Part shown: positions 14,041 through 56,870 of the stretch, piece by piece
Numbering within the stretch: the stretch's first letter is position 1
Layout of the letters: the number at the start of each line of letters is the position of its first letter
NCBI RefSeq assembly: GCF_024700885.2
Contig: NZ_CP117014.1
DNA from: Escherichia coli
Lineage (GTDB): Bacteria > Pseudomonadota > Gammaproteobacteria > Enterobacterales > Enterobacteriaceae
DNA: 64,000 nt
Reading direction: 5' to 3' (one strand)
Notes under the pieces: model-generated
The model's database searches: none
The model's input: only the letters and a program-made list of their open reading frames with translations
What the model was told of the DNA's origin: nothing
Made by a program: the position numbers and the translations under genes

Positions 14041-15702
14041 ATGAGTGAGGCAGAAGCCCGCCCGACTAACTTTATTCGTCAGATCATCGATGAAGATCTG
14101 GCCAGTGGTAAGCACACCACAGTACATACCCGTTTCCCGCCGGAACCGAATGGCTATCTGCATATTGGTCATGCGAAATCTATCTGCCTGAACTTCGGGA
14201 TCGCCCAGGACTATAAAGGCCAGTGCAACCTGCGTTTCGACGACACTAACCCGGTAAAAGAAGATATCGAGTACGTCGAGTCGATTAAAAACGACGTTGA
14301 ATGGTTAGGTTTTCACTGGTCTGGCAACATCCGTTACTCCTCCGATTATTTTGACAAACTCCATGCCTATGCTGTTGAACTGATCAACAAAGGCCTGGCG
14401 TATGTTGACGAACTGACGCCGGAACAGATCCGCGAATACCGCGGCACCCTGACGCAGCCGGGTAAAAACAGCCCGTACCGCGACCGCAGCGTTGAAGAGA
14501 ACCTGGCGCTGTTCGAAAAAATGCGTGCCGGTGGTTTTGAAGAAGGTAAAGCCTGCCTGCGTGCGAAAATCGACATGGCTTCGCCGTTTATCGTGATGCG
14601 CGACCCGGTGCTGTACCGCATTAAGTTTGCTGAACATCACCAGACTGGCAACAAGTGGTGCATCTACCCGATGTACGACTTCACCCACTGCATCAGCGAT
14701 GCGCTGGAAGGTATTACGCACTCTCTGTGTACGCTTGAGTTCCAGGACAACCGTCGTCTGTATGACTGGGTACTGGACAACATCACCATTCCTGTTCACC
14801 CGCGCCAGTACGAATTTTCGCGCCTGAATCTGGAATACACTGTGATGTCCAAGCGTAAGCTGAACCTGCTGGTGACCGACAAGCACGTTGAAGGCTGGGA
14901 TGACCCGCGTATGCCGACCATTTCCGGTCTGCGTCGTCGTGGTTACACTGCGGCTTCTATTCGTGAGTTCTGCAAACGCATCGGCGTGACCAAGCAGGAC
15001 AACACCATTGAGATGGCGTCGCTGGAATCCTGCATCCGTGAAGATCTCAACGAAAATGCGCCGCGCGCAATGGCGGTTATCGATCCGGTGAAACTGGTTA
15101 TCGAAAACTACCAGGGCGAAGGCGAAATGGTCACCATGCCGAACCATCCAAACAAACCGGAAATGGGTAGCCGTCAGGTGCCGTTTAGCGGTGAGATTTG
15201 GATCGACCGCGCCGATTTCCGCGAAGAAGCTAACAAGCAGTACAAACGTCTGGTGCTGGGTAAAGAAGTGCGTCTGCGTAATGCTTACGTCATTAAGGCT
15301 GAACGCGTGGAGAAAGATGCCGAAGGCAATATCACCACCATCTTCTGTACTTATGACGCCGACACCTTAAGCAAAGATCCGGCAGATGGTCGTAAAGTGA
15401 AAGGCGTTATTCACTGGGTGAGCGCGGCACATGCGCTGCCGGTTGAAATCCGCCTGTACGATCGTCTGTTCAGCGTGCCGAACCCAGGTGCTGCGGATGA
15501 TTTCCTGTCGGTGATTAACCCGGAATCGCTGGTGATCAAACAGGGTTTTGCTGAACCGTCGCTGAAAGAAGCGGTAGCGGGTAAAGCATTCCAGTTTGAG
15601 CGTGAAGGTTATTTCTGCCTCGACAGCCGCCATTCTACGGCGGAAAAACCGGTATTTAACCGCACCGTTGGGCTGCGTGATACCTGGGCGAAGTTAGGTT
15701 AA
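14041..15702 (+). CDS. glnS: Glutaminyl-tRNA synthetase
   Basis: 553-aa class I aaRS with HIGH (LHIGHAKS) and KMSKS-like (VMSKR) motifs; essentially indistinguishable by eye from enterobacterial GlnRS; own terminator. Confidence 0.95.
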
Positions 15703-15726: not shown

Positions 15727-15753
15727 TAAACGCCGCTACTGCGGCGTTTTTTA
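15727..15753 (+). terminator. Rho-independent terminator after glnS
   Basis: AAACGCCGC-tact-GCGGCGTTT hairpin followed by T-tract. Confidence 0.65.
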
Positions 15754-17979
15754 CTTCATTATTGCAATTATATCGTTAGCAACTACACGTGTTGACGCCT
15801 TGCAGGACACCGACCGTCTGGCTGCCATATGATGTACTTTAAACCCGTTTCGTTCATATAGTTCACGGATGTTTGGCGCACCACTATTTGTTATCACTAC
15901 CTTAGCGCCGCGCTGGTGGGCTTCCACCAATAGAGATACCAGCCGTTTCTGTTCGTCGAAACGGAAGCTATTTCCTGAATAACTGGTAAACCCTTCTGTA
16001 TCCGGCAGCGGTTCATACGGCGGATCGCAAAAAATCACATCGCCTTCACCAGCCGCCTCGATGACGCCAGCAAAGTCACCTGATACAAAGGACGTGTTTT
16101 TGAGTACGTCATCAGCCAAAAATGCCTCCATCTCTGCATGTGGGAAGTAGGGCGCTTTGTATTTGCCATACCCCACGTTGAACTCGCCATTTTGGTTGTA
16201 CCGCGTTACGCCATTAAAACAGTGCCGATTAAGGTACAAAAAGGCGGCAGCATGATGTAGCTGGTCATACTTTCCTCTGTTAAATGCCTCGCGCACTTCG
16301 AGGTAAGCGTCAGCGTTGTTGTAATTTTTGAAAAAACTATATGCCAGCGTGACGAGCGAATGTCCCTCTCGCTGCAATGTCTGATAGAAGTTAATCAGGT
16401 CACCGTTAATATCATTAAGCAGGTTGTGGCGAAATCCTGCATTCGTAAATACGGAACCGCCACCAACGAATGGTTCTATTAACCGCTTGCCGTGTGGTAG
16501 ATGCTCAAGCACTGTAGGCAACTCTGAGAATTTACCGCCTACCCATTTGAATATTGGGCGTTCATATTCATCCGGAGTCCGGAGTTTTCTTGTGTAGGTA
16601 ATGGTATTTATTGTTTTTTGCTGTTTATCCGCTACGGTCGCAAGAATGCGACACCCTATCCATTGCATAACAGGAACTGCCATGCTGTTGCCGATCGCTT
16701 TGTAACGCGGTCCGTCAGCTGCAAGCATCGCGGCCTCTTCTTCGCTTAAATCTGGATAGTGATTGCGAAGGTATGCCAGTTCATCTGAAGAAACTTTTTT
16801 ACGCTTTTCCGTAGGGATCAACGTGTGCCCGTCAGGAAAGCCCTGCAGGCGTTCGCACTCGACAGGCGTTAAGCGACGTACTGCCACTCCGACGTTCGCA
16901 CTGTCAAAAACAGCCAGGTCGGTTGCATCCTTAAAATCTCTGGCCTTGACCGTGGAAGCCGCCTCATCATCCGCATACTCACCAAATGCTACCATCCGGT
17001 AAGCACCGACAAGCCCACTTCCGCGCTGTGAAAAAATCTCCTGGTTGCTTGCACCCGTCCCGCCGGTATTGTGCGATCGGGCAAGTGTCGGGTGAGGATT
17101 TACAGGGTTATCCCAATGGCTCCCGCTTTTAATGCCATTTCCAACATTTCCGGCAACTTCCTTCCCCTCGCCTCTGCTCGGCGCAATATCCCGGCGCACG
17201 CCTTCGAACTCAAAAAGTACCGTTGCGGGATCGAGGTCTGTTCGAGCACTTGCGACAACAAACACGCGTCGGCGTCGTTGTGCCACTCCGAAGTATTGGG
17301 CATCAAGTATTCTCCAGGCCACCTTTCGCTGCGGTCCATAAATACAACCACACTGCGGCCACTTTGGAGCATGGCAACCGGTTTTGCCATCCCACCGCCA
17401 GAACGCGTTACTTTTTCCTGATTCAGGTCGATCACCTGGTTCAAATGGTGCATCTTCTCCAGCCAATCCGGCAAGGAAACATCCGAAGGCGTTATCTGCC
17501 GATGACAGGACTCCTGGGACATTTTCCCAGACGATAACTGTCGGTTTGAGGAAGGACTCAGACCGTTTGTCGTCAATTGCATTTGCAAGCTCCACATACT
17601 TCAAAGTTAGCGCGCCGCGCTCATCATCAAGCCCACCACGTAATCCCGCGATACTGAATGCCTGACAAGGTGTTCCCCCGACGAGCACATCAGGGGATTC
17701 GATTTCCCCAGCCAGGACTTTTTTGGCAAGTTTTGTCATATCGCCAAGGTTGGCGATATGAGGCCAGCGGTGCGCAAGAACGGCAGATGGAAAAGGCTCA
17801 ATTTCAGCAAACCACGCCGGACGCATACCCAACGGTTCCCAGGCAATGCTCGCGGCTTCAATTCCACTGCAAACTGAACCATATCGAAGGTTAACGTTCT
17901 GCTTCACCGCCAATGGCCTCCACCAGCGCGTTAAACAGTGCAGATAATTCGCCCGTAAAGAGCACGAAATCAGCATCAA
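15751..17979 (-). CDS. dmt: Bifunctional DNA methyltransferase: N-terminal C5-cytosine (Dcm-type) plus C-terminal N6-adenine (Dam-type), P1 Dmt-like
   Basis: Motifs [22 protein letters not shown] in N-terminal half; DPPY and Dam-like region in C-terminal half; start uncertain, ORF overlaps rdgC 3' end by ~88 nt. Confidence 0.8.
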
Positions 17980-21257: not shown

Positions 21258-22087
21258 TCGATCACTCCGTTTTGAGTCGTATCAAAATTTCTGGCAGGTA
21301 TGCAGTAGTAAAGCGAACCAACATGTTGTGTGCCGTAGCTAAAAATACGGTGCACGTACCACCAGCGGCGGGCTACGCCGTTTACCATCTCTTCATTCCA
21401 TTCAAGAATTGATCCGACGGGGACGTTATTTGCTGCAATACGCAGAATCAGAACATCATCGGTTAAGCCATCCTGCTCACCGTCTGCGTCAATCGCATGG
21501 AAAGAGTCACGCCCGTCAGGGTTATCCAGCACATAAACGATTTCAGGTTCCTGGTAAGTCAGTTCGCGTTGGTTGTTATCCAGTTCAGTGAATGACTCTT
21601 CTCCTGTTTCGTCGCTGACTACCCCATATGTGCCAACATCTGGTCGATATAAGAGAGCCTGAAACGCGTCTGGGCTGGATTCAATAATCAGCATCCAGTC
21701 TGCGCGGATTTGGTCGTTAAAGGCTTTATGCCCGTTATAGCGTGCTTTTAGCTGTGGCGTCGGTTCTCTGCCAGCCAAGGAAGGTGGAAGTATGGCTATA
21801 TCTGATTCGCCAGCGTCCGGAGTAAGGCCACCGTTGCTATCAGCAAAATTATCATGGCTATCAGCTTCGGCGGTGGATTGCTCTTCCAGAATGCTGAATG
21901 AATCCGGTCCGGCATTGCCATGTTCCGGCGCGCTTCCTGCATCCGCTTCAACCGTCGCTGGCGTTTCTCTCTGCGTGCTGTCATGTTCTGACTCCTTACT
22001 TGCCAGGTTTGCATCGTCAGCAAACCATTCGTCAAAACGGCCCATAAGCATCCTCAAAGGTCGATTTATCAGGTATCGAGGGTGCAT
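21254..22087 (-). CDS. Putative baseplate/tail protein (277 aa)
   Basis: First ORF of operon, overlaps next gene by 4 nt. Confidence 0.3.
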   Translation of the reverse strand: MHPRYLINRPLRMLMGRFDEWFADDANLASKESEHDSTQRETPATVEADAGSAPEHGNAGPDSFSILEEQSTAEADSHDNFADSNGGLTPDAGESDIAILPPSLAGREPTPQLKARYNGHKAFNDQIRADWMLIIESSPDAFQALLYRPDVGTYGVVSDETGEESFTELDNNQRELTYQEPEIVYVLDNPDGRDSFHAIDADGEQDGLTDDVLILRIAANNVPVGSILEWNEEMVNGVARRWWYVHRIFSYGTQHVGSLYYCIPARNFDTTQNGVIE

Positions 22088-22190
22088 TGTCTGGAGATTG
22101 TGATTTCAATTCATATCCCAGCATGGGACTAAAGTGCTTTACATTGTCCCATATTGGAACTACTATACTTTCAGTGAGAAGGAATCTGTG

Positions 22191-22493
22191 ATGAAAATAA
22201 TTTCGGTAAAAACACTAAGGGATTTTTGGGCGAAGAATCCCGATGCAGAACAGCCTTTAAAGGCATGGGTTGATGAAGCAACAAAGGCTGACTGGAAAAA
22301 TCCGGCTGAGATCAAAGAACAGTACCGGACAGCCAGCATCCTTAAAAACAGGCGCGTGGTGTTCAATATTAAGGGAAATGATTACAGGTTAATTGTCGCA
22401 ATTGCTTATCAGCGAGGATGGATGTTCGTTAAGTTTATTGGAACACACAAGGAATACGATGCCATTGACGCGGATACAATAGAACTGGAGTAA
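22191..22493 (+). CDS. higB: HigB-family type II toxin (RelE/ParE fold)
   Basis: 100 aa with conserved ...FNIKGNDYRLI...FIGTHKEYD pattern; toxin-first gene order. Confidence 0.75.
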   Translation: MKIISVKTLRDFWAKNPDAEQPLKAWVDEATKADWKNPAEIKEQYRTASILKNRRVVFNIKGNDYRLIVAIAYQRGWMFVKFIGTHKEYDAIDADTIELE

Positions 22494-22496
22494 ATC

Positions 22497-22856
22497 ATGA
22501 ACATTAAACCTATCCGTACAGAACAAGATTATGAGGCCGCACTGCGTGCGGTCGAACCGATGTTCGATAACGAACCGGAAATGAACACCCCGGAAGGTGA
22601 TTTCTTTGAGGTCATGTGTCTTCTCATTGAGGAGTACGAGAAAAAACATTACCCAATTGAGCCACCATCACCTATTGAAGCCATTAAATTCCGCATGGAA
22701 CAGCAAGGGCTGACCGTGAAGGATCTGGAACCGGCAATTGGTAAGTCAAACCGTGTTTACGAAGTGCTTAATGGGACACGAAATTTGACGTTACCTATGA
22801 TTCGTCGTTTACATGCCCAGTTTGGTATTCCACTGGAAAGTCTGGTTGGTGTTTAA
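22497..22856 (+). CDS. higA: HigA-family antitoxin (XRE-type HTH)
   Basis: 119 aa, starts 4 nt after higB stop; C-terminal HTH-like segment (GLTVKDLEPAIGKSNRVYEVLNG). Confidence 0.75.
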   Translation: MNIKPIRTEQDYEAALRAVEPMFDNEPEMNTPEGDFFEVMCLLIEEYEKKHYPIEPPSPIEAIKFRMEQQGLTVKDLEPAIGKSNRVYEVLNGTRNLTLPMIRRLHAQFGIPLESLVGV

Positions 22857-22916
22857 GTTTTGCGGTCTGGATGACCGCTTTTACATAAAATCAATGTTTA
22901 AATATTTGGTAATTAT

Positions 22917-23648
22917 ATGAGCGCTGATTCATCAATAGAAAAGGAAAACCCCTCTACCAAAAATCTGTTAGAAGACGCTGTAAAAGATAAGTTGTTTAAT
23001 AAGGTTTTTGCCTATATTTTTATTTCATTTTTAATTTCTAACTGGCAAGAAATATTGATTTTGTTTAAATCAAAATATGATATATACACAACACTATCTA
23101 TAGTATGGATTGGTGACAAATATCAAGTCCCTTATTTGGGAACCTTCATTGTACCTCCGTTTTTAGCTCACTTTGTTATGCCGTTTATATATGGCACTGT
23201 TGCGTCCATAGTAATGCCTTATATTACTATGCGTATATCAAAACTAACTGGTAGAAATTATGCGCAAATAAGACATATTGACCGTGAATTTGACTCAAAA
23301 GAGCAAGCAAGATTAGATGAGTTACAGAAAGAAATAGAACAAAAAAAAGATGAGCGTTTAAGTCTAGAAAAGAAAATAGAAGATCAACGTAAATCATTGG
23401 CTAAAATTGAAGGTGAAAAGAAAGAAGTTGAGGACGCTAGAATATCCCTGTTTTATGGGATAAAGGCAATAGTTGATATATATGAAACCAAAGGCGAAAG
23501 CATTTCCACCCAAGAGGATTTTGCTGATTTACTAAAGGCAGTCGAACAAACTGATTTTTATAAAGATACAGGTTTATACGGTATTAATAAATTGGTAGAT
23601 GATGTAAAAAGAATATACGAACATCAATCTATCTTAAATGATAAGTAA
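22917..23648 (+). CDS. Membrane protein with 2-3 N-terminal transmembrane helices and a long charged coiled coil (243 aa)
   Basis: Strongly AT-rich gene; hydrophobic segments (FAYIFISFLISNWQEILILF; FIVPPFLAHFVMPFIYGTVASIVMPYITM) then E/K-rich heptads. Confidence 0.5.
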   Translation: MSADSSIEKENPSTKNLLEDAVKDKLFNKVFAYIFISFLISNWQEILILFKSKYDIYTTLSIVWIGDKYQVPYLGTFIVPPFLAHFVMPFIYGTVASIVMPYITMRISKLTGRNYAQIRHIDREFDSKEQARLDELQKEIEQKKDERLSLEKKIEDQRKSLAKIEGEKKEVEDARISLFYGIKAIVDIYETKGESISTQEDFADLLKAVEQTDFYKDTGLYGINKLVDDVKRIYEHQSILNDK

Positions 23649-23677
23649 TAACATAGGCGGGATAACCGCCTATGTTA
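23648..23677. terminator. Bidirectional hairpin between convergent genes
   Basis: TAACATAGGCGG-gataa-CCGCCTATGTTA inverted repeat. Confidence 0.45.
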
Positions 23678-23681
23678 TCAA

Positions 23682-24878
23682 TCAAGAACCTTTCTTCACA
23701 TACTCCATGAACATTTTTTCAGCCTGCTCAGGTGACGTTCCTGCCATGACAAGCGCATCAATGAACGCCTGCTTCTTCAGTGCGAACTGATCGGCAAGGC
23801 GTTGCTGAAGCTCCTTGTTTTTCTGTTTCTCACGTTGCAAGGCCGCTTCTTTTGCTGCCGCCCGTTTTTTCTGTGCGTCTGACAACTTTCTGGCTTTGGT
23901 CAATTGGTCACGTAGCTTGTCAATTTTGCCGTTGTCCTTTGCCAGTTTTGTGCTTAAAGCGGCCTGGCGCTTCTGATAGAGCCTCCATTCGCGCTTGGCA
24001 GCGTCAACGTTTGTTTTACTGTTGCGATTGCGATTAAACTCCCTCTCGTCTTCTTTTGAGAAGTGTTTGGTTGTACGGCGGCGATCGTCACCAAATGCAA
24101 TTTGCGTTGCGGCCTTTTGTAACGCACGAGCAATACTCATTTGCCAACTGGCGGACTGTAACCGCGTCATTGAGTGGATCACGTGTTTACAGGCGACGCC
24201 TTGTAGCTTAGGGTTACGAACTTTTGGATAGGCGTATTCTTTTGGCGGGGCCAGGGCAAAGTTACCTGCAGTAGCGATGTAACGATACCAGTATTGATGA
24301 CGACCACAGTCACAATCGAAAGACACCCGCCCAGCGCACAGTGATTTAGTGATTTTCAGAGCTGATTTATCGTCTTCTGCGATGTCATCGACCATCTGAT
24401 CCCATTCTTCAAAGCGTATCCGGACGATATGGTGCTGGTGGACGGATATATCCGATGCTTCTACGCGGATATTAATCACGTTGTGGCGAAGAGATACGGG
24501 TGTAGCTCTTTTGATACCAGATCCGTCATCCACGGCGTTATTTGCACGCTTAATATCGATTGCCTGGCTGGATGCCACCAGCTGGGCGTATGTGATGCCA
24601 GCCGTCTTGCTGTCATATTTTTCGCGTGTTTTACTCCGTAGCTTTTCGAAACCTTTCAGGTCGTCTCGCGTGAAGAACGTGCCGCCTTTTTTCTTCCCTA
24701 ACTTGAGAATATCTTCGGCGGATTTGTTCCTCAGTCTACCTGGCGTCAGCGTCCGGTGAGCTTGTCGGCGCTTACGGGTTTGTTCTTTCCTGATAAGGTC
24801 GAATAAACGCGTGAAGTCCTTAGAGGACAGGCCGTCAGTGATATAGCGCCCGTCCTGGTTTTTCAGGAAATCAGGCAT
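23682..24878 (-). CDS. SWIM-type zinc-finger protein with basic N-terminus and K/R/Q-rich coiled-coil C-terminus (398 aa)
   Basis: CDCGRHQYW...(25)...CKHVIH matches a CxC-Xn-CxH SWIM finger. Confidence 0.45.
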   Translation of the reverse strand: MPDFLKNQDGRYITDGLSSKDFTRLFDLIRKEQTRKRRQAHRTLTPGRLRNKSAEDILKLGKKKGGTFFTRDDLKGFEKLRSKTREKYDSKTAGITYAQLVASSQAIDIKRANNAVDDGSGIKRATPVSLRHNVINIRVEASDISVHQHHIVRIRFEEWDQMVDDIAEDDKSALKITKSLCAGRVSFDCDCGRHQYWYRYIATAGNFALAPPKEYAYPKVRNPKLQGVACKHVIHSMTRLQSASWQMSIARALQKAATQIAFGDDRRRTTKHFSKEDEREFNRNRNSKTNVDAAKREWRLYQKRQAALSTKLAKDNGKIDKLRDQLTKARKLSDAQKKRAAAKEAALQREKQKNKELQQRLADQFALKKQAFIDALVMAGTSPEQAEKMFMEYVKKGS

Positions 24879-25200
24879 TTTCTATCTCCGGTTCCGCGCT
24901 CGCGTAATCACGGATCTTGTTCCTCAGCCATGCCACATCAGGAAGAGTTAACGTGGTCCCGGCGGGCATTTCTTCCATTTCTGACTCATGGCCCACCAGC
25001 ACCCGGAATACCCAGCGCAAATCTGCATTGCCATACGCCCGGTAGGCTGCAAGGTCTGAACGATATACTTCATCAATCTTTATCGTGTACTGGAAATTAT
25101 CAGAGTGATACTCCGATACCCGCTTAATCATTTCCTGGTGAAACAGCGCACGAAAAATATCGTCTTCAATGTACCTATCGTCGAGTCTGCTATAGCCCAT
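24871..25200 (-). CDS. Hypothetical protein (109 aa), translationally coupled to SWIM protein
   Basis: 8-nt overlap with downstream gene. Confidence 0.4.
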   Translation of the reverse strand: MGYSRLDDRYIEDDIFRALFHQEMIKRVSEYHSDNFQYTIKIDEVYRSDLAAYRAYGNADLRWVFRVLVGHESEMEEMPAGTTLTLPDVAWLRNKIRDYASAEPEIENA

Positions 25201-25372
25201 AACAAAGCCTCTCAGTCATAACCTGGGGGAAACTGTATGCAGGGTGTGAAATGCGAGAAACAGACAGGTCACCATAAATCCCCTCACTGGTGACAAGTGA
25301 CTTTCATTAATCTTTATGCGGGGGCCAGCTTCATTTGCTGGCATTAGATTAAAAATTAAACGGAGTGAATGA

Positions 25373-25507
25373 CATGGATGTTATATTCGAATTATTAATG
25401 CTAATTGATCTGTTTATGAACGCTTCATTGACCACTCAAATACTCGCGTCAATATTTTTGTTACTCTTCTACCTGGTATTGAGGGAGTTAACAAAGCTAC
25501 TAATGTG
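25373..25507 (+). CDS. Small hydrophobic peptide (44 aa), candidate membrane-active toxin-like peptide
   Basis: MDVIFELLMLIDLFMNASLTTQILASIFLLLFYLVLRELTKLLM; GGAG 12 nt upstream; below the track's 60-aa cutoff. Confidence 0.3.
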
Positions 25508-25508
25508 A

Positions 25509-26162
25509 TCAAAGTATCACGGTATCTTCATCAACTTCTTTCCCAGCCAGTGACTTTGGCTGGGAGGTGCCTGCTTTAACTTTTTCATGCCCAATAATGG
25601 ACAGGAACGAAGCGAGTATGCCTGTTTTTTGCTCTTTCTCGACTGTACCGGTCATCTGCTCTACATAATCTGCACTGGCAACGTTGTGGTATACGGTCGC
25701 GTAGCAACACAGGATCATCAAAATATGCTCCGGCCTGATATCCTGCCAGTTCACCCTGTAGACTTCTTCTCCGTTACCGTTGTATTCGGTATCAACGATA
25801 GAGTCGGGGATTTCGAAAGCACCTTTGTTATTTTGCGGCAGGGATAATAGTTTCTGGAGTTTTAACTCTCTGTATCTTTCCATCCCAACGATGATTGCTG
25901 CTCTACCATCGGCATGACGGGTCTTGAGAGTCACCTGGCTTGCTCCGGTGCCAGCGGAGATCGTTGGCGTAATTTCGTCTACTAGAACCTTAAATTTGCT
26001 TTTCCGCAGGGCTGCTATAGCTGGAGGAATTTTTTGCTTTTGCTCCAATGCTGACGCGGGAAGGGGTTTTACTTCGTTAATAATGAGAGCACCGTCTTTC
26101 AGTATTGCAGTGAGCATTTGAGGCTTGCTGGTGGTCAGGCTGAATATTGCGATCTTTTCCAT
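25509..26162 (-). CDS. Hypothetical protein (217 aa from ATG 26162, GGAGGAAGG RBS)
   Basis: Track ORF extends to 26204 but a strong RBS precedes the internal ATG and a terminator hairpin occupies 26197-26213. Confidence 0.4.
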   Translation of the reverse strand: MEKIAIFSLTTSKPQMLTAILKDGALIINEVKPLPASALEQKQKIPPAIAALRKSKFKVLVDEITPTISAGTGASQVTLKTRHADGRAAIIVGMERYRELKLQKLLSLPQNNKGAFEIPDSIVDTEYNGNGEEVYRVNWQDIRPEHILMILCCYATVYHNVASADYVEQMTGTVEKEQKTGILASFLSIIGHEKVKAGTSQPKSLAGKEVDEDTVIL

Positions 26163-26189
26163 TTTCCTTCCTCCACGGATGACGGATAC

Positions 26190-26213
26190 AAAAAAAGGCC
26201 GCACATGGCGGCC
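26190..26213 (-). terminator. Rho-independent terminator (minus strand)
   Basis: GGCCGC-acat-GCGGCC with A7 on plus strand = U7 tail on minus. Confidence 0.5.
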
Positions 26214-26430
26214 TGCTTTGGCGTTATGACTCCCTACCGCGCTTCGGCTGAAAGTTAATCGTCAAAAGAACCTTCAACGGGAGCCGTTAGCGCGATGGAT
26301 TATGTGCAGTTTGTGATTTCCAAAATAGTGTCAACCACTTTTTGTGGATTTTATTTTTTGACCGAAATTTGGCCTAAATCATGTTGATGTAGTTAATTGT
26401 TTTTATAACATAAAACTTCATTTTGTTTAC

Positions 26431-27054
26431 ATGAAGGATGGTGTAGTGAAGTTAAGGGTTTTAGGGGCCGCGCTCGCGGCTATGTTGGGATGCGTATCTG
26501 CTAATACTGCCAATGCAACTGCGTTACCTGCACAATTCAGGGCAGGGCAGCAGGTTATGAATAATGCTGGTGGGGATCATTCACAAGCGGCCATTATGGA
26601 CTTTTGCAAGAGGGAGGGCATTCCATTACGGCCTGTTGGAACTCAGTTTATTGGTAAAACTGACTTTTGCGTTTTTGCATATACAGCATATCTGACGGAC
26701 AAAGCTATAACAAAAACAGGTTATTCAACCAAAGATACTCTTTCCAGATTAAGTCAGGGATGGCAGCAATTCGAAGTGTATCGCCAGCAAGGATTAGGTG
26801 AGTTATTGCAACCACTTTTTATGCTTGCGTTGGTGCCCGAGGGGCAGCAATTTTTGGTTAAAAAGGGAATGCTTCGCCAAAGTGATATTGCCGGGTTCGA
26901 TAGCATGATGGCTTATGAGCGCAAACTAACCGAGCAGCGAAATAAAAAACCATCTGCTTCATGTGTGCAAAGTAAAACAGCAGAATACAGTGCAGTAGCC
27001 GGGCCTTTAGCCAAACAAATGGCAGAGCAATGGTGTAAAAAATACGGGCAATAA
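26431..27054 (+). CDS. Exported protein with signal peptide (207 aa)
   Basis: N-terminal LGAALAAMLGCVSANTANA signal-like segment. Confidence 0.5.
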   Translation: MKDGVVKLRVLGAALAAMLGCVSANTANATALPAQFRAGQQVMNNAGGDHSQAAIMDFCKREGIPLRPVGTQFIGKTDFCVFAYTAYLTDKAITKTGYSTKDTLSRLSQGWQQFEVYRQQGLGELLQPLFMLALVPEGQQFLVKKGMLRQSDIAGFDSMMAYERKLTEQRNKKPSASCVQSKTAEYSAVAGPLAKQMAEQWCKKYGQ

Positions 27055-27074
27055 GTTACGCAGCGGAGGCAGAA

Positions 27075-27467
27075 TTGAAAAGATTGACAATTGCTTTACT
27101 GGCGTCTTTCCCTTTGATCGCGAGCGCCGGAAATTTACAAGTTAAGTGCGGTCGGTTTGATATAAAAATCTATCCAGATGCCATATTTCTGAATGGGAAT
27201 AAGGTTGATAACGTACACCGAAAAACTGAATCTGACGTAATGAGCTATGTGTTCCAGGAGTATGCGGAGATGGGGGGAACTTACACGCTGTACTCGCTGG
27301 ATGTTCCTTCTCGCGGTGATATGACATTATCCCATCAATGGCAGAACGCCGATGGCGAAGCTCTGCGCGAAGTTAAAACAGAAAAATGTGGCACTTTCCA
27401 TTCTTTTAAAGGGAAAGTGCCAAATGTTAAATCTGTGCTTGAAAAACAGCGCGCAGGTGATTTTTAA
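27075..27467 (+). CDS. Exported protein with signal peptide (130 aa)
   Basis: MKRLTIALLASFPLIASA signal peptide. Confidence 0.5.
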   Translation: MKRLTIALLASFPLIASAGNLQVKCGRFDIKIYPDAIFLNGNKVDNVHRKTESDVMSYVFQEYAEMGGTYTLYSLDVPSRGDMTLSHQWQNADGEALREVKTEKCGTFHSFKGKVPNVKSVLEKQRAGDF

Positions 27468-27489
27468 ACTGTGTTAGCACTTTGAACAT

Positions 27490-27535
27490 GGCGACAACAC
27501 ATCTTGGTGGCTGCGTTGTCGCTGTATGTTTTTAT
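27490..27535 (+). terminator. Rho-independent terminator
   Basis: GCGACAAC...GTTGTCGC stem followed by TGTATGTTTTTAT. Confidence 0.5.
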
Positions 27536-27555
27536 AATATAAAGCATTAAAGTTT

Positions 27556-28185
27556 TCATTTTTGTCGGATCTTTTCCAGCATATTTAATTCATTATCACT
27601 TTCTGCTGCTGAGACGGTTGGCCTCACATTTCCGAAATATTTCCTGTGAGACTCATGACTTATGTATTCACCGACAGTTTCATTCTTGAATATACGAATT
27701 TGACATATGCGAGATCCAACAATAAGTTCTACAGGGCTATTCCCATGATTAAATAACTCTAAAGATATACAGCCTCTGTACCCTGGTTGTATCATGGTAT
27801 TTAATGAAAGACCAAGCCTTGTATAGCTGCTTCTGGACAATACATCAGCGTAGCAATCTGGTGGCAAACAAACATATTCTAATGTTGTTGCCAGTACCAC
27901 TTGATTCGGGTAAACAATGAACCTATCCCCAAGATCTCTCCTTGTTTCCTGGAAAAATGTTCTGATTGGTTGATGAGTATCATTGTTTTTTGAGGGAATT
28001 AACTCTATTGACGGCTTCCTTGTCATAATAGACACTAAAAAATCGTAACCAAGTCTAAGGTCTATGGTGAAGTTTCCAATTTGGTTTTTATTTAGAAGAG
28101 GTTCAATGAACAACGACTCAGGTTCTTCTGATTCATAATATTGCAGCAATTCAGCTTTGCTTAGGAGATTCATTGTGCACTCCAT
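27556..28185 (-). CDS. dCTP deaminase (Dcd/dUTPase-fold) homolog
   Basis: 209 aa collinear with E. coli Dcd: IDLRLG, LATTLEYVCLP, RSSYTRLGL, GYRGCISLELFNHG; putative catalytic Ser/Arg/Glu conserved. Confidence 0.7.
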   Translation of the reverse strand: MECTMNLLSKAELLQYYESEEPESLFIEPLLNKNQIGNFTIDLRLGYDFLVSIMTRKPSIELIPSKNNDTHQPIRTFFQETRRDLGDRFIVYPNQVVLATTLEYVCLPPDCYADVLSRSSYTRLGLSLNTMIQPGYRGCISLELFNHGNSPVELIVGSRICQIRIFKNETVGEYISHESHRKYFGNVRPTVSAAESDNELNMLEKIRQK

Positions 28186-29243
28186 TTTTCAAGAATCATT
28201 ACGTTTCGAATCGATTTTTCAACCAAATCATTTATAGTTTTTTCTATGGCTTCTTTTGACAACCCAGACCATATACCCGTAGGTTTTTCCCATTCAGAGC
28301 ATAAGTACTGCCAGCTGCTGTTAATAAAAGCATGCATTTCATTGTGGTCGCGAATAACAAAAGGACGCACATTATCAAAAGCTGATTTCACATCAAGCAA
28401 AGGTGTCGGCAATGTCAAACAAGGAGAAATAATCTGCCCACCCTTATGTAAGGCTGATATCACAGCATTGAACATGCCAACAACTGGATTTTCCACTTTG
28501 TTCAAAAAGTCGCTTACAATTTTAACTCTATCTTCTGTGGATGGGTGAGTATAGCTTGCAGGATGAGAGCCAGCTAATTTGTATAAGAAATCTACCCCAC
28601 TTTTTCCAATAAATTGGGCACTAAATAGATCTGCAAAATATTCTCTGCAATGATTTATCCAAATAACATCAGGTAGATTACTCCATTCTGGTCCTGGAAG
28701 TGTGCCTTTGTCCTTGGAACGATAGTTAAGACAGGCAAGCTCAGAAATACCTTTGCTAATATCAACGAAATGTCCCAATTCGTGATATAAAGGTATAGAG
28801 CATAATGGTCGTCTTCTGTACATTTCAGGTAATGAAATCTGAATTAATTCGACCTCGAATTTGACATTTAAAACTTCATCAAATAAAGAATACAAATTCT
28901 TGTTTACAGACTTAAAATAAAACCCATGCATATCTGGAGATAGGGCTGTGGTTATAAGTGTTTTTTCACTTATCCATTTTTTACAGGCATCATTTAAGCA
29001 ATAAACAATCTCGTAGGGAATTTTCTTTGTAGTACTGCCAGTGAAAAAATTAACTGCATCGGTGATAAAAAAAGTACAATCCGCAATTATTTTATCAGCA
29101 ACATTCACATGGTTTTCATAGAGCTTATCTACCGCTTCTTGTAGAACAGCAAGATATTCATGCATGTCTTTAGAAAAATAGGGAGATTCTGATATCTCCC
29201 TTAGCTTATTTCGAACTAATGTAAGTTGTGTAAATGCAAGCAT
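28170..29243 (-). CDS. HExxH zinc metallopeptidase-like protein (ImmA/IrrE-like motif)
   Basis: 357 aa; HELGH at residues 154-158 with downstream EYFADLFSAQFI; 16-nt overlap with Dcd-like gene. Confidence 0.5.
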   Translation of the reverse strand: MLAFTQLTLVRNKLREISESPYFSKDMHEYLAVLQEAVDKLYENHVNVADKIIADCTFFITDAVNFFTGSTTKKIPYEIVYCLNDACKKWISEKTLITTALSPDMHGFYFKSVNKNLYSLFDEVLNVKFEVELIQISLPEMYRRRPLCSIPLYHELGHFVDISKGISELACLNYRSKDKGTLPGPEWSNLPDVIWINHCREYFADLFSAQFIGKSGVDFLYKLAGSHPASYTHPSTEDRVKIVSDFLNKVENPVVGMFNAVISALHKGGQIISPCLTLPTPLLDVKSAFDNVRPFVIRDHNEMHAFINSSWQYLCSEWEKPTGIWSGLSKEAIEKTINDLVEKSIRNVMILEKWSAQ

Positions 29244-29548
29244 TAAATGTACTCTAATACATTCCGGGCCATTACGGGTTCTAACATATCTTCGCTAGTT
29301 ACTTTGGTTAGCACCTGGGCGAGCGCCTTAGTGTGGCGTATCTCTACCGCGAGCGAGATGGACTCTCTGTGAGAAGGAATCTGTAATTGATCACCTTTAT
29401 CTACACTTAAGTTTGAGGCTTCTCTGATCACCTCATAAACCCGTAACTTTAACTGCTGTGACACTTCTTGTTGAGATGCTATAAGCTGAAGTACAGTCTT
29501 GATTAACTTCAAAGAATCAGAAGCTTGCTGAGGAACCGCATAGAGCAT
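29243..29548 (-). CDS. Small hypothetical protein (101 aa), first gene of the three-gene operon
   Basis: Stop overlaps start of the metallopeptidase gene; predicted all-alpha. Confidence 0.4.
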   Translation of the reverse strand: MLYAVPQQASDSLKLIKTVLQLIASQQEVSQQLKLRVYEVIREASNLSVDKGDQLQIPSHRESISLAVEIRHTKALAQVLTKVTSEDMLEPVMARNVLEYI

Positions 29549-29684
29549 AACCCCTCCTTTTCCCTTATCTATAACCGCTTTCTTTTTTCTGTGGATGTTA
29601 AAAGTAGAAGCGGTTTTTACCTTTTATAATATATATAGTGTCTAAAACTAATTTTGGCACTATATATGGCATGATATCTATGTT

Positions 29685-29730
29685 TTAAAGACACAAAAGC
29701 TCTGTTAAAACAGAGCTTTTGTGTCTTTAA
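29685..29730. promoter_or_regulatory. Perfect 20-bp inverted repeat with 6-nt spacer upstream of the three-gene operon
   Basis: TTAAAGACACAAAAGCTCTG-ttaaaa-CAGAGCTTTTGTGTCTTTAA; second IR ATATATAGTG-N17-CACTATATAT at 29631-29667. Confidence 0.5.
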
Positions 29731-29874
29731 CTTGATCATTTTCTCGCTGAAGTGTATGTCAGGCTTAGCTCATAATCAAGTTGCTTCCAAGCTAAAAATG
29801 AGCTATTTCACTGAAACACCAAGAGCGGGATGTTTCATTTATTTGCGTTGGGCCTGACGGTGTGCAGGTGAGTT

Positions 29875-30162
29875 TTAGCTCATCACACTATAACGACGGG
29901 GAACGGAATTCTCCATCAGGTCACGAATTACTCCCGCCTCATGTAGTTCCTCTGTTTCCCAGTATCTGTTTGTCACCAGATCGAGGCTGGCTATGACCTT
30001 GTGCCGGTCATTAGGCATAGCCAATTTTTCTGCTATAACCATCAGTGAAAACTCTTCATCCAGTAGGATTTGATACCAGACTTTTGACAGCTCCAACTCT
30101 CTAATGAGGGTGAAGCGCCGCTCAAGTGTGGCGGCAGAATAAGTGAAATCTATTTTTTTCAT
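29875..30162 (-). CDS. Hypothetical protein (95 aa)
   Basis: ORF downstream of antirepressor-like gene. Confidence 0.4.
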   Translation of the reverse strand: MKKIDFTYSAATLERRFTLIRELELSKVWYQILLDEEFSLMVIAEKLAMPNDRHKVIASLDLVTNRYWETEELHEAGVIRDLMENSVPRRYSVMS

Positions 30163-30221
30163 CGTGCGGATAATCCGATTATTTGGCAGTTAAATCCCCG
30201 GCGTCGCCGGGGATGCAGCAT

Positions 30222-31148
30222 TTAACTAACAATCCAGTCCATAGCAATAACATCCTCTGGAGCTAAATCAATAGCATGGATTTTCCCGTCACGGATGGTG
30301 CGCCAGTGCTTTCGTGATCCACCTTCGGGCCACACCCATATACCTTCAGGCCAGGAAGAACGACGACACACTGTTGCGTATCCAGTCCTGATCTTCTCTC
30401 TGACGGTATGTAGTGACAGATTATCCTTTGGGCTTTCAGGCACAGGATGGTGGATTGCCTGAAACATCCCCATCTTTGGATGATACCAGCGTTTATTGCG
30501 TGGTTCTGCCTCCGACATCACCTGCTTAAAGGCTTTCCGGAAGGGGGCCAGGGCCACAATGGAGCGTCGCGCAAGCAAACCCTCTGGAGTTAAAAACTCA
30601 TGCGTATCGGTGGGAATCCGGAAAGCGTTAACCAGGTTGCGACATTTGGCTTCAGTCAGGCCACATTTCGCCGCCAGCTGGCGGTAGCCAATGTAACCTT
30701 CCGGCATATTGCCTTTCTTGATTTGCTCGAGTGTTTCAGCGACCATCGATACTTGTGCTGATACCTCGGCTACCTGGGCATTTACGGCGTTGATCCGGCG
30801 TTCATGCTCAAGATGCATTTGCGCCATTTCAGCCAGAATTTCGGCTTTTGATTTTAACTGTACCCGGGCATTCTCCAGTTCGCGCCAGCGGTCCACCAGC
30901 CGGGCGGTGAATTCGGGAGAGAGCTGCGCGACGACGACAATACTATCGCGCTTGCCTTGCTCGCCTTCGAAGACGTAATAGCTCGCCGGGCGGCCTGCGG
31001 TGGGCTTTTCCTCAATTTGAGGAAAAGATATTACGCCCCGTTCCGCCAGGTGTTCAATGGTGCGTTTAACGTTATCAGGGCGCTTACCTACCAGTTCCGC
31101 GATCTCAATGCTGGTCATTGTCGCTTTTTGAGAGATGGACAGATTCAT
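30222..31148 (-). CDS. Rha-family phage regulatory protein / antirepressor-like
   Basis: N-terminal ...TSIEIAELVGKRPDNVKRTIEHL... resembles the Rha domain; 308 aa. Confidence 0.55.
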   Translation of the reverse strand: MNLSISQKATMTSIEIAELVGKRPDNVKRTIEHLAERGVISFPQIEEKPTAGRPASYYVFEGEQGKRDSIVVVAQLSPEFTARLVDRWRELENARVQLKSKAEILAEMAQMHLEHERRINAVNAQVAEVSAQVSMVAETLEQIKKGNMPEGYIGYRQLAAKCGLTEAKCRNLVNAFRIPTDTHEFLTPEGLLARRSIVALAPFRKAFKQVMSEAEPRNKRWYHPKMGMFQAIHHPVPESPKDNLSLHTVREKIRTGYATVCRRSSWPEGIWVWPEGGSRKHWRTIRDGKIHAIDLAPEDVIAMDWIVS

Positions 31149-31363
31149 CAGTGCGCCTCCACGCAGTTCATCGGCAGATTCCAGTAATTGAGGATCTCCA
31201 TCGCATCAAGAGTGAAGCGAGCAGCAAAAATGCAGGGTTCTTCGGGAAGGTATGAGCGCGCCTCTGCTTCGGTAGCAGCCATGACGCAGATATACAGGTG
31301 TTTTTGGCAGGAATAGAAACGCCAGATAAATTCAGAATGAGTTGGGGTAGGGATAGTAGCCAT
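31148..31363 (-). CDS. Small protein (71 aa) overlapping antirepressor start; Icd-position gene
   Basis: ATG with AAGGAGG RBS; stop overlaps antirepressor start. Confidence 0.4.
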   Translation of the reverse strand: MATIPTPTHSEFIWRFYSCQKHLYICVMAATEAEARSYLPEEPCIFAARFTLDAMEILNYWNLPMNCVEAH

Positions 31364-31548
31364 ATTGGCAGCCTCCTTTGACTAAGTTAAGGAGCTACCG
31401 CGTGAGGTTCCAATCTCAATGGCGGTAGCACTGACTGGGTTGGAACTACCGGCGTCAAAGGGAACCGGCCTGCCTTTCGGCAGCCCAGCCAGCACTACCA
31501 TTGATCTCTGAGCTAAACGCTACGTATGGCTGTGCGATGGCATGACAC

Positions 31549-31569
31549 AAAAAAGACGCTTTCGGCGTC
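31549..31569 (-). terminator. Rho-independent terminator (minus strand)
   Basis: GACGC-tttcg-GCGTC with A6 on plus = U6 on minus. Confidence 0.5.
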
Positions 31570-31674
31570 TGTGTCGCCTTTGACATTATCCGGGGTTCCA
31601 ATCCCGGCACCCGTTTTTCTAAGGTGCCGTAGAAATATACCCCACGATAATGCTAGGGCGCAACAGTCAGTATT

Positions 31675-31842
31675 TTATGCTTTGGCGGATTTCTTCCGGG
31701 CTTGCTTGCAGGCGTAGGCCATTGCTTTAACTTTCACTTCATCCAGCTTCCCGGTGATCACTTCTTTTCCGAGAGTGACAAACCAGTCATAGCAACCGCC
31801 AGTGATGTTCTGGATTTGAAAGTTGAGGTAGCGAACAGTCAT
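31675..31842 (-). CDS. Small basic protein (55 aa), below track cutoff
   Basis: ATG preceded by GGGGG; MTVRYLNFQIQNITGGCYDWF...KQARKKSAKA; followed by terminator. Confidence 0.3.
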   Translation of the reverse strand: MTVRYLNFQIQNITGGCYDWFVTLGKEVITGKLDEVKVKAMAYACKQARKKSAKA

Positions 31843-32173
31843 TTTGACACCCCCGACGCGAGTAAAGAATGCAGATTATCGCGTGAGTGGTGGACGACGA
31901 GTGATGGGAAAAGACTGTAGTTGTTCATAGTGTAGTGACTCCTTGCTTTCGGAGCCGCCATCGACTGTTCCACGGTCTGGTGGCGGCGCAATAAAGGCTG
32001 GAACACCGTGAGTCAACGGGGGCTTTTCAGCCACCTATATTGCACCGCCATAGGTATGACGGCGGCAATAATACGAAAAACTAAACAGTTTGTCTCAAAA
32101 AGTTGACCGGTGTGCCAATCGGTAGTGAATGTACATCGGAGAAATTTACAATTCAACTTAAAATGTTAGAAAA

Positions 32174-49000: not shown

Positions 49001-50029
49001 TTACGAATCCATCAGGCGGCTATTAGCCCCCACAGACACGCCGCCACGGCGAAGATACCGCATAAGTGTTTCCGGTTTCTTCCAGGTTCCTTCCTGCATG
49101 ATCTCCACCATAGACACCTGCTTTTCAGCCATATCAATAGCGGCCCCGACGCGTGCACTATGCCCGGTCCACGTCCGGTATCTTCCTTTGTTTGGCGTAG
49201 CATCTCTTTTATTCAGCAACACCCAGGCGTCGCTGAATATTTTCTCCATTGCAGGTGCAGTAAGGGGCGTTGTCGTGATCCTGGCCTTATTGCTACGGTG
49301 TATCGGCGGGAACAGCACTGCGTCAGGATGTTCGCGAAGCCCGGAAACATCCAGCCAGTCATTCAGCACAGCGGTAGTGCGACGGGAAAGCACCTTATCA
49401 AGCCCGGCGGCGGTCGTTATTGTCTTCGTGTGTGAAATATGTAGCGTGACAGTGTCACCTGTTTGATCCAGATCTCCTACACGAATACGCGAGATTTCCG
49501 ACATACGCATCAGCGTATTGTATGCAACAAAGAGAAAAGCCCGGTTGCGCAGGTCCACCAGCCGTTCTGACCTGGACAACAGGACGTCGAGCAGTTTCAG
49601 ATCGTCCCACCGAAGCGGTATAGCCTGGCCTGTTCGTTCGCCTTTTTCAGTTGCCGCTTCGCGCCGGATGCGCCGCATAGCCAGAGAAACACTTTTATCA
49701 TCCGAAAGTGGCGGAAGGCCACAATGCGAAAGCAGCATATTCAGCATGGCGTAGTGCTTATCAATGGTGGTCGAAGCCAGATCGGCATCATGCAGCTGAA
49801 GAAAATACTCGCGGGCCATTTCTGGTGAGATCGGAAACCAGGCAAGCTGGCGAGCGTGACACCAGCGCGCCCATGAATGAAACACCAACCGGAGGTCGCG
49901 CAGAGTATTCGGCGCATAAGCCCCCTGGTCATTCATGAACCGCATAAAGTTTTCTGCAGCCTCCTGGTACTCTTTGCCAATGTTGCGCAGAAAACCACCG
50001 GAGCTGCCAGAGATAATTAATTCACTCAT
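49001..50029 (-). CDS. Cre-like tyrosine site-specific recombinase
   Basis: 342 aa collinear with P1 Cre (…WTGHSARVGAA.DMA……IMQ.G.W……Y.R), conserved R/H-x-x-R/W/Y; lox-like site ~150 bp upstream. Confidence 0.8.
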   Translation of the reverse strand: MSELIISGSSGGFLRNIGKEYQEAAENFMRFMNDQGAYAPNTLRDLRLVFHSWARWCHARQLAWFPISPEMAREYFLQLHDADLASTTIDKHYAMLNMLLSHCGLPPLSDDKSVSLAMRRIRREAATEKGERTGQAIPLRWDDLKLLDVLLSRSERLVDLRNRAFLFVAYNTLMRMSEISRIRVGDLDQTGDTVTLHISHTKTITTAAGLDKVLSRRTTAVLNDWLDVSGLREHPDAVLFPPIHRSNKARITTTPLTAPAMEKIFSDAWVLLNKRDATPNKGRYRTWTGHSARVGAAIDMAEKQVSMVEIMQEGTWKKPETLMRYLRRGGVSVGANSRLMDS

Positions 50030-50180
50030 GAAACTATTTAACCTCTATATACAGATAACGCTACGCGAAAAATATAAAAATGACAGGGTAGCTATAAGTT
50101 AATTTTCAAGATTCAAGCCTTTGATTCGAGGCGCGTATTTTCAGTGATGTCAATACTGATCATCTACCCATAATTATAGC

Positions 50181-50214
50181 CTAACTTTAAATAATGCCAA
50201 TTATTTAAAGTTAT
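50181..50214. other. lox-like recombination site: 13-bp inverted arms with 8-bp asymmetric spacer
   Basis: CTAACTTTAAATA-ATGCCAAT-TATTTAAAGTTAT; outer AACTT/AAGTTAT shared with loxP. Confidence 0.6.
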
Positions 50215-50395
50215 AAAATGCCGATTTTTTTTAATCCATCATAGATTGATGATGACCAGTAACACGTTGCCTTCATGGTCTTTAATTTGCGAAGTGTGGT
50301 TTCTACGGTTGGTTTTCTAAAATTGATGACAAAAAATCACAGTTCGATCCTTTACTCACTCTGTTATTCGACATAAATTTGTCATAGTAATTTTA

Positions 50396-50411
50396 TGTTA
50401 GAAAACTAAAT
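50396..50411 (+). promoter_or_regulatory. Dispersed motif copy TGTTAGAAAACTAAAT in promoter of gene at 50424
   Basis: Read directly, ~13 bp upstream of ATG. Confidence 0.45.
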
Positions 50412-56278: not shown

Positions 56279-56354
56279 TGGTGGCCCCTACCGGACTTGA
56301 ACCGGTGACCGTGCGATTATGAGTCGCCCGCTCTAACCACTGAGCTAAAGGGCC
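56279..56354 (-). tRNA. tRNA with CAU anticodon (Ile2/Met-type)
   Basis: Reverse complement gives 76-nt cloverleaf ending CCA, anticodon loop CTCATAA; very similar to E. coli ileX from memory. Confidence 0.8.
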
Positions 56355-56783: not shown

Positions 56784-56870
56784 TGGCGGAGAGTAATGGA
56801 ATCGAACCATCATCGCTTGCGCAATGGGACGGTTTTCAAGACCGCTTGAGCACCATGCTCCCTACTCTCC
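56784..56870 (-). tRNA. tRNA-Ser (UGA), type II with long variable arm
   Basis: 87 nt, acceptor GGAGAGT/ACTCTCC, anticodon stem GCGGT/ACCGT, loop CTTGAAA, T-loop TTCGATT, 3' GCCA. Confidence 0.7.

Follow-up and report, generated by a model that had tools for sequence, protein, structure and literature searches.

The DNA analyzed here is a stretch of 64,000 nucleotides (the window) from Escherichia coli contig NZ_CP117014.1, and the subject of this work is its positions 22088 to 29874, an interval between two conserved phage modules. The interval contains higB and higA, a gene for a 243-amino-acid membrane protein, a SWIM-motif gene with its operon partner, a 47-amino-acid open reading frame (ORF), two genes for signal-bearing proteins, and a three-gene cassette encoding a small protein, a predicted zinc metallopeptidase, and a dCTP deaminase (Dcd). 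An earlier reading of the letters without database searches (the sequence-only reading) had taken the whole interval for one accessory island, and the genes that it named all exist. The interval is instead a mosaic, in which core virion and maturation genes are interleaved with three exchangeable cargo slots, and its peptidase-Dcd operon is a strong candidate for defense content.

Megablast searches with the interval gave matches to Escherichia phage D6 (95% identity over 43% of the query) as well as to 130 plasmids from E. coli, Salmonella, and Shigella, which are about 90 kb in size and nearly all non-mobilizable. The D6 annotation places homologs of P1 genes 5, 6, 24, and 7 on one flank and pmgF, the antirepressor gene, icd, and ref on the other. 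The boundaries drawn earlier are confirmed by the start of the P1 gene 7 homolog at 22087 of the window and the stop codon of the pmgF-like gene at 29875. The conserved flanking modules, including the antirepressor region, are also real: the antirepressor Ant has a match in phrog_63, and on the minus strand at 31418 to 31627 lie C4 antisense RNA and isrK, which score 77 and 63 bits, respectively (each exceeding its Rfam gathering score), and represent a P1-type immI control region. These two were the only families detected by the Rfam scan of 21900 to 32000, in which the leader hairpins of the cassette matched no family. Because of the D6 flank annotation, the phrog_63 match, and the C4/isrK pair, the window is assigned to a D6-like, P1-related phage-plasmid. 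In some relatives, ant and icd are altogether missing at the immI position, and therefore the variable zone reaches beyond 29874.

Mosaic structure of the interval

Segment frequencies were obtained by separate searches of PLSDB plasmids, and breakpoints were obtained by BLAST against seven relatives, with which the interval shows sharp junctions. The middle block with the core genes 25, 26, and mat (23690 to 26260) is conserved in 118 plasmids, in 116 of them near full length, and is mostly 95 to 99% identical. The exported-protein pair (26431 to 27467) occurs in 70 plasmids (45 near full length). The higB segment (22107 to 22489) is present in 23 plasmids, and a relE/higA pair takes its place in D6 and many other relatives. 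The 3' part of the 243-amino-acid gene (23100 to 23689) diverges, its allele in the window being shared by six plasmids, and the Dcd cassette (27468 to 29885) is found in about 11 of the 118 plasmids and is missing from most relatives. The GC content is 0.314 for the 243-amino-acid gene (z = -4.1) and 0.372 for the cassette stretch 27468 to 29885 (z = -3.9), compared with 0.476 for the middle block (z = +0.2) and 0.472 for the whole window. The AT-rich, heterogeneous cargo of the sequence-only reading is thus represented by the 243-amino-acid gene and the cassette and not by the middle block, which has the average composition of the window. Among the relatives compared, the gene set is variable and the GC content uneven, rather than invariant and uniform. 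Variable presence, deviant composition, and discrete junctions coincide at 22107 to 22489, 23100 to 23689, and 27467 to 29877, and they do not at 23690 to 26260.

The first slot comprises the higBA pair and the hypervariable 243-amino-acid gene, and the slot after mat comprises the two exported proteins, with the cassette adjoining. That the whole of 22088 to 29874 forms a single cargo island is hardly tenable. Both ends do adjoin conserved modules, and several of the genes between them are variable and AT rich; however, about 2.6 kb in the middle corresponds to P1 genes 25, 26, and mat, and the frequency of this core block, together with the breakpoints in the seven relatives, refutes a single island. 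The supposed SWIM cargo operon consists of the homologs of P1 genes 25 and 26, followed by the mat homolog. The genes for the exported proteins qualify as cargo in part, being semi-conserved. The interval itself is therefore ordinary phage-plasmid mosaicism.

Three hairpins and a palindrome had been regarded as punctuation of the island. All four structures are present (23648 to 23678, 26191 to 26219, 27491 to 27522, and the perfect palindrome at 29685 to 29730), but the hairpins are accounted for as terminators of convergent genes, and the 46-bp palindrome is part of the control region of the cassette, conserved in Klebsiella, Dickeya, and Proteus, and not an island boundary. Terminator-like hairpins are in excess, with 20 found versus 7.3 ± 3.0 in shuffled sequences.

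The peptidase-Dcd cassette

The cassette is a 2.4-kb insert (27467 to 29877), and cassette-less relatives have about 30 bp in its place. A 14-nucleotide imperfect direct repeat, GCAGGTGAKTTTTA, is found on the plus strand at 27453 to 27466 (left copy) and at 29864 to 29877 (right copy), where it forms the right edge of the cassette. This repeat has two matches in the window versus 0 expected, and empty sites have one copy. Just before the left junction, inside the 3' end of the gene for the 130-amino-acid exported protein, there is a 20-nucleotide imperfect inverted repeat (27383 to 27428; 85% complementary). The hairpin at 27491 to 27522 (11-nucleotide arms, 91% complementary) lies inside the insert, between this exported-protein gene and the convergent dcd gene.

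The control region of the cassette, on the minus strand at 29631 to 29762, consists of a sigma70-like promoter (29762 to 29735), inverted repeat 1 (IR1; 29685 to 29730), which is a perfect palindrome of 22 plus 22 nucleotides, and IR2 (29631 to 29667). An integrative element of Klebsiella pneumoniae shows 83% DNA identity over exactly 27554 to 29785, that is, from the dcd stop codon to just upstream of the conserved TTGACA promoter. The palindrome region is identical at 48 of 48 positions in the Klebsiella copy, compared with 83% across the cassette, and the promoter, IR1, and IR2 are kept in the Dickeya, Proteus, and Aeromonas copies, with compensatory changes. Because the promoter and repeats are conserved in these four copies, the palindrome is assigned to the predicted control region of the cassette itself. 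The leader RNA has a predicted fold of -53.9 kcal/mol (z = -7.2 versus shuffled sequences), and the palindromes most likely serve in autoregulation, either as operators or as hairpins in the leader. Outside the enterobacterial/Aeromonas clade, no long palindrome was found upstream of the distant cassette copies in a search covering perfect arms of at least 9 nucleotides with loops of at most 8 nucleotides. The cassette is horizontally mobile and autonomous, with a promoter of its own.

The three genes lie on the minus strand. The first (29243 to 29548) encodes a fast-evolving, labile-looking helical protein of 101 amino acids, and its stop codon overlaps the start of the peptidase gene. The mean column identity of this protein is 30%, with only an N-terminal M-[LFY]-x-[AS] motif conserved. 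In many of its orthologs (L015 to L062), the C terminus is an Ala-rich or hydrophobic tail (...SYAA, ...LNAAA, ...YAAI, and ...AVTA) resembling ssrA-like degrons, and the window copy is shorter and has no tail of this kind. The second gene (28170 to 29243) encodes a 357-amino-acid predicted zinc metallopeptidase of the HExxH...E gluzincin type, with helical N- and C-terminal domains. Across 36 sequences, no variation is seen at H154, E155, H158, and E201; these residues make up the HExxH motif and the downstream Glu, the third zinc ligand, as in M48-type metallopeptidases, and the protein is described as M48-like. Unlike the M48/M56 gluzincins (HtpX, Oma1, and BlaR1) and the ImmA/IrrE zincins, the cassette peptidase is soluble, with no membrane segments; its flanking helical domains are novel, and the motif NDLxEKSIRN near its C terminus is invariant. 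A Foldseek search among PDB structures found no relative of it. The family is small, with 508 cluster representatives among 1.84 billion proteins, and tblastn against 50,697 phage records gave no match.

The third gene (27556 to 28173) encodes a dUTPase-fold dCTP deaminase of 205 amino acids, counted from MNLLSK. It matches TIGR02274 with 113.3 bits (cutoff, 92.8) and solved Dcd structures at 1.9e-16, and PF22769 (DCD) is recorded on its orthologs. Its invariant residues, R118/S119/S120, R123, E143, K182, and Y183, correspond in the alignment to the RSS...ARLG...LEF...KY residues of E. coli Dcd, from which we take the Ser, Arg, and Glu residues to be catalytic and the Lys-Tyr pair to bind the triphosphate. 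The active site is intact, and the protein is predicted to convert dCTP to dUTP. It is the most conserved member of the triad, with 53 to 81% identity. The protein shares its fold, length, catalytic Ser/Arg/Glu residues, and C-terminal Lys-Tyr with housekeeping Dcd (E. coli dcd; TIGR02274; PDB 1xs1 and 4xjc). Its identity to E. coli Dcd is only about 30%, however, and in contrast to the housekeeping enzyme, a conserved additional helix of about 15 residues (D197 and L-x-x-L) is present at its C terminus, and its gene is always part of the mobile three-gene cassette, in hosts with a dcd gene of their own.

No NCBIfam or Pfam family was found for the products of genes 1 and 2, which public records name "hypothetical protein," and none of the three proteins had a PADLOC v2 hit (for Dcd, at an E value of ≤0.01). 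NCBI annotates gene 3 simply as dcd. Hundreds of public contigs from E. coli and Salmonella encode exactly these cassette proteins, and among 5,426 complete E. coli genomes, the cassette is present in seven, always on D6-like plasmids.

The triad is kept together over a wide phylogenetic range. In species-representative genomes of Proteobacteria and Bacteroidota, dcd lies directly downstream of the peptidase gene in 48 of 50 loci, the other two being a truncated contig and the weakest hit. A small ORF lies directly upstream of the peptidase gene in all proteobacterial and Bacteroidota loci with sequence there, and the gene junctions overlap. A natural 631-amino-acid peptidase-Dcd fusion, preceded by a 101-amino-acid ORF, is encoded on a metagenomic contig (L070, 2050 to 3945; P0204). 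An AlphaFold2 (AF2) model of the three chains fused, built with 18 paired sequences, had a predicted template modeling (pTM) score of 0.81, for which reference values had been fixed beforehand (about 0.46 when nothing docks, 0.58 or 0.71 for one docked pair, and 0.85 for all three). The model suggests that the small protein, the peptidase, and Dcd may form a ternary complex.

Other genes of the interval and the window

The first slot begins with the higB toxin gene and its promoter region (22107 to 22489; coding sequence, 22191 to 22493, plus strand), with breakpoints at 22106 and 22490 against four relatives (L002, L011, L012, and L014). HigB matches the PADLOC profile PD-Lambda-2_A (PDLC03979) over its full length (3.4e-42; positions 1 to 96 of 97). 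The following higA-like gene (22497 to 22856, plus strand) encodes a 119-amino-acid Xre helix-turn-helix (HTH) antitoxin (phrog_1373, transcriptional regulator), which is kept in most relatives, even in those without this higB. PD-λ-2 requires a fusion of HigA to a peptidase and a third, P4-antitoxin-like gene that is necessary for defense (Vassallo et al. 2022; PMC9519451). The window HigB resembles component A, and the HigA-like protein resembles the N-terminal HTH of component B, covering only positions 1 to 119 of the 402-position PD-Lambda-2_B profile. In contrast to component B, the window antitoxin has no peptidase domain within its 119 amino acids, and component C was not detected, the downstream 243-amino-acid protein having no PD-Lambda-2 hit in PADLOC. 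PD-λ-2 was therefore ruled out for higBA plus the 243-amino-acid gene, with two of three components matched and the peptidase domain missing, and the pair is predicted to be an ordinary type II toxin-antitoxin (TA) pair. This assignment agrees with the toxin-first adjacent arrangement, the 4-nucleotide spacing, the RelE/HigB fold of the toxin, the Xre-HTH antitoxin, the profile hits, and the RefSeq annotation of identical proteins.

In the hypervariable protein of 243 amino acids (22917 to 23648, plus strand), hydrophobic segments lie toward the N terminus and a coiled coil toward the C terminus. Its homologs are confined to E. coli and Salmonella elements and are 45 to 68% identical, compared with about 97% in the flanking core. 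No significant Pfam or PADLOC hit was obtained, Pfam giving a weak coiled-coil match only, and a role in superinfection exclusion is a guess. A hairpin at 23646 to 23680 (13- to 15-bp stem, 5-nucleotide loop, and T-rich tail, with 13-nucleotide perfect arms at 23648 to 23678) separates this gene from the convergent core block and is probably a bidirectional terminator.

The core block opens with the homolog of P1 gene 25, a 398-amino-acid tail protein with a SWIM-type CxC...CxH motif (23682 to 24878, minus strand; phrog_1722 tail protein, 1.5e-196); the corresponding D6 orf74 is annotated as similar to P1 gene 25. It is followed by the 109-amino-acid homolog of the P1 gene 26 baseplate protein (24871 to 25200, minus strand; phrog_1269 baseplate wedge, 2.3e-36; D6 orf75). 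P1 gp25 is virion associated, and gp26 resembles T4 gp53 (PMC9024508). The gap between gene 26 and mat contains a putative hydrophobic ORF of 47 amino acids (25365 to 25508, plus strand; phrog_38362, 1.6e-30), with D6 orf77 at the same place. The mat (maturation control) homolog, a 231-amino-acid ORF (25509 to 26162, minus strand; phrog_1837, 1.6e-94), has a GC content of 0.466, and D6 orf78 is annotated as similar to P1 gene mat. About 30 nucleotides upstream of its start, a GC-rich hairpin followed by a T-run (26191 to 26219, minus strand) is conserved with the core block. By homology, synteny, and near-universal presence (the whole block in 116 of 118 plasmids), 23690 to 26260 is identified as P1-type core virion and maturation machinery. 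In Escherichia fergusonii pEF-4, an extra relE/higA pair (L013, 9212 to 9783) occupies the gap between gene 26 and mat, which constitutes a further small cargo slot, and in the relative NZ_CP066033.1, an IS2 is inserted within the otherwise conserved block.

Two proteins of 207 and 130 amino acids with N-terminal signal-peptide-like sequences, as judged by inspection, are encoded on the plus strand at 26431 to 27467, in the position of a simB-like gene (orf79) in D6. They belong to phrog_12786 and phrog_13864, both families without annotated function, and had no Pfam hit. The 207-amino-acid protein was rejected as a SimB homolog, as only 14 residues of the signal peptide are in common with the simB-like orf79.

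Outside the interval, the window encodes a full-length glutamine-tRNA ligase (14041 to 15702, plus strand; TIGR00440, 1,067 bits versus a cutoff of 425.8), which relatives annotate as glnS at the same place, and five tRNA genes (Met, Ser, Thr, Tyr, and Arg; 56279 to 57573, minus strand). Together, glnS and the tRNA cluster suggest translation-related cargo on the phage-plasmid. A 742-amino-acid protein (15751 to 17979, minus strand) has Dcm-like (N-terminal) and Dam-like (C-terminal) methyltransferase matches and resembles P1 Dmt; D6 annotates this region as two genes, orf63 and orf64. A 342-amino-acid Cre-like tyrosine recombinase (49001 to 50029, minus strand) was identified by eye against P1 Cre, and a low-GC stretch (50000 to 50400; 0.39) adjoins its gene.

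Proposed role of the cassette in phage defense

The sequence-only reading had pointed to the interval as a hotspot for defense. PADLOC found no known defense system there, and the part of this proposal that is strengthened concerns the peptidase-Dcd operon. We propose that the cassette is a protease-gated, TA-like system for anti-phage defense by dCTP depletion, and we give this reading a probability of about one half. In a lysogen, the three proteins would form a complex without activity. When another phage infects, or when host gene expression is shut off as a result, the peptidase would be led to remove the small inhibitor or to trim the C-terminal extension of Dcd, and the freed Dcd would convert dCTP to dUTP, starving or uracilating the replicating DNA of the invader. 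The outcome would be a TA-like, nucleotide-depleting abortive infection that protects the host clone of the phage-plasmid, and the cassette palindromes would mediate autoregulation.

Defense by dCTP deaminases has been validated (Tal et al., preprint, "Antiviral defense via nucleotide depletion in bacteria"), and deamination of dC nucleotides is likewise the defense strategy of AvcID, in which the AvcD deaminase is paired with an AvcI RNA antitoxin. These systems share the logic proposed here, in that deoxycytidine nucleotides are deaminated upon infection to starve phage DNA synthesis, the enzyme is held off until infection, and the genes lie in defense islands or mobile elements; AvcID also resembles a TA system, the gene for its labile inhibitor lying immediately upstream. 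Their enzymes have a zinc-dependent cytidine/dCMP-deaminase fold fused to a kinase or NTPase-like domain, whereas the cassette Dcd, of predicted activity, has a dUTPase fold, its partners being a zincin and a small protein. The cassette was rejected as the dCTPdeaminase system of Tal et al. and PADLOC (about 576 amino acids with an N-terminal kinase-like domain), its protein being 205 to 209 amino acids long with a dUTPase fold and no PADLOC hit. It was also rejected as an AvcID-type (type III) TA system, because the toxin fold differs; a structured leader is present upstream, with no Rfam match.

The conservation of the active sites bears on which protein may act as the effector. The HExxH and Glu residues of the peptidase are invariant, its large extra helical domains have no solved structural relative, and the strong conservation of Dcd is what would be expected of a ligand-binding module. 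The peptidase could thus be the effector, with the Dcd-like protein as a sensor or decoy for nucleotides (e.g., phage-modified dCTP or altered deoxynucleoside triphosphate [dNTP] pools) and the small protein as inhibitor or substrate. However, all catalytic residues of Dcd, and not the binding residues alone, are invariant across phyla, and therefore catalysis is favored over sensing alone and such an arrangement is improbable. Little weight is likewise given to a role of the operon in phage nucleotide metabolism or counter-defense, in which Dcd would feed dUMP/dTTP synthesis or rebalance pools, with the peptidase as an accessory factor in maturation. Enzymes of the Dcd family are indeed known from phages (phrog_1663 is annotated as dCTP deaminase, and phage-type Dcd structures have been solved), and the plain dcd annotation by NCBI fits this role. 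On the other hand, the 357-amino-acid partner is unmatched in the phage records searched, about 90% of D6-like elements do not have the cassette, most copies are in bacterial chromosomes and islands, and the obligate triad with a protease would be left unexplained.

The genomic neighborhoods of the cassette are consistent with defense in Proteobacteria, for which the neighborhood test, a PADLOC search of 40 large neighbors, was informative. In Proteus mirabilis, the cassette lies on an integrase island directly beside QatABCD. Type I restriction-modification (RM) systems adjoin it in Rhizobium, Bradyrhizobium (L021), and locus L062, and a type III RM system adjoins it in Methylolobus; HerA, mad8-like, and PDC-S60 neighbors are found at L036, L033, and L020. 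The Methylophilus locus has ubiquitin-like ThiF/Multi_ubiq genes, an M78 peptidase, and Rhs toxins. The Dickeya copy lies on an integrase/AlpA island, and at mnmE in the K. pneumoniae chromosome (L071 to L074), a small primase-carrying integrative element has the cassette as its first cargo behind the integrase. This Klebsiella element also carries AAA_25 and Ash-like genes and is listed for thousands of assemblies; an insertion sequence interrupts the junction of the small-protein and peptidase genes in one Klebsiella strain.

These settings also bear on whether the triad is mainly a module for addiction through post-segregational killing, in which loss of the element would remove the labile small protein and leave a long-lived Dcd to poison the dNTP pool. 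The TA-like layout of three overlapping genes with a fast-evolving small first gene and promoter palindromes, the presence on plasmids or integrative elements, which the proposal takes to be invariable, and the other TA pairs already in the same region favor such a module. In Aeromonas, however, the cassette is at a chromosomal site without obvious mobility genes, and elsewhere it adjoins RM, Qat, and HerA systems. Addiction as the main role is thus considered unlikely, though less so than the two alternatives above, and as many TA modules do both jobs, it is compatible with defense.

Several points weigh against the proposed protease-gated defense. The case for a defense function is built from genomic neighborhood and sequence, and the assignment of effector, sensor, and inhibitor roles within the triad is entirely inferred. 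None of the three proteins matches PADLOC v2. The association with defense genes is patchy and confined to Proteobacteria, about 17 large neighbors in the Bacteroidota loci having no convincing PADLOC hit, and it is suggestive, consisting of raw occurrences. By its sequence, Dcd looks like a normal housekeeping enzyme and could serve metabolism, and on a plasmid prophage, the same architecture suits an addiction module equally well. The peptidase-Dcd fusion is a singleton from one sequencing run and may be a read-through artifact, and the fused-chain AF2 model is an improvised proxy read by pTM from only 18 paired sequences.

In the open-access literature and in PADLOC up to 2023, no report was found of Dcd or other dUTPase-fold enzymes with peptidases in defense or of the RefSeq accessions of the cassette; one apparent "Dcd" match was the string dCdA. 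Within that scope, the triad is new to defense catalogs and the literature, and the higBA pair is ordinary. A wider proposal can be made tentatively, and with less assurance than the dCTP-depletion reading itself: the triad would be an undescribed anti-phage system in which a protease gates a metal-independent Dcd, would have arisen independently of the zinc-deaminase systems, and would spread as a 2.2-kb unit of promoter, palindrome, and three genes among phage-plasmids, satellite-like integrative elements, and the defense islands of Proteobacteria and Bacteroidota. The slots resemble the hotspots of P2 and P4 (Rousset et al. 2022; PMC9122126) in having fixed positions between conserved genes and different small systems in each isolate, and they differ in belonging to a D6-like phage-plasmid with several small slots, most alleles of which are uncharacterized. 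The cassette slot also resembles the P1 sim/immI neighborhood in lying beside the c4/icd/ant region, the site of the sim genes in P1 and D6, but no SimB homology beyond a signal peptide was detected.

The slot map indicates where D6-like phage-plasmids exchange cargo and is useful for mining further systems, and it also illustrates that an island called from the letters alone can contain core virion genes. If the proposed function is true, the cassette would represent a second, structurally unrelated route to dCTP-depletion immunity, as well as a clear case in which a dedicated protease controls a defense effector. A zincin family without a solved structure would then gain a function. As the exact proteins are encoded on hundreds of contigs from E. 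coli and Salmonella, and K. pneumoniae very commonly carries a close variant, the system could affect host range in phage therapy.

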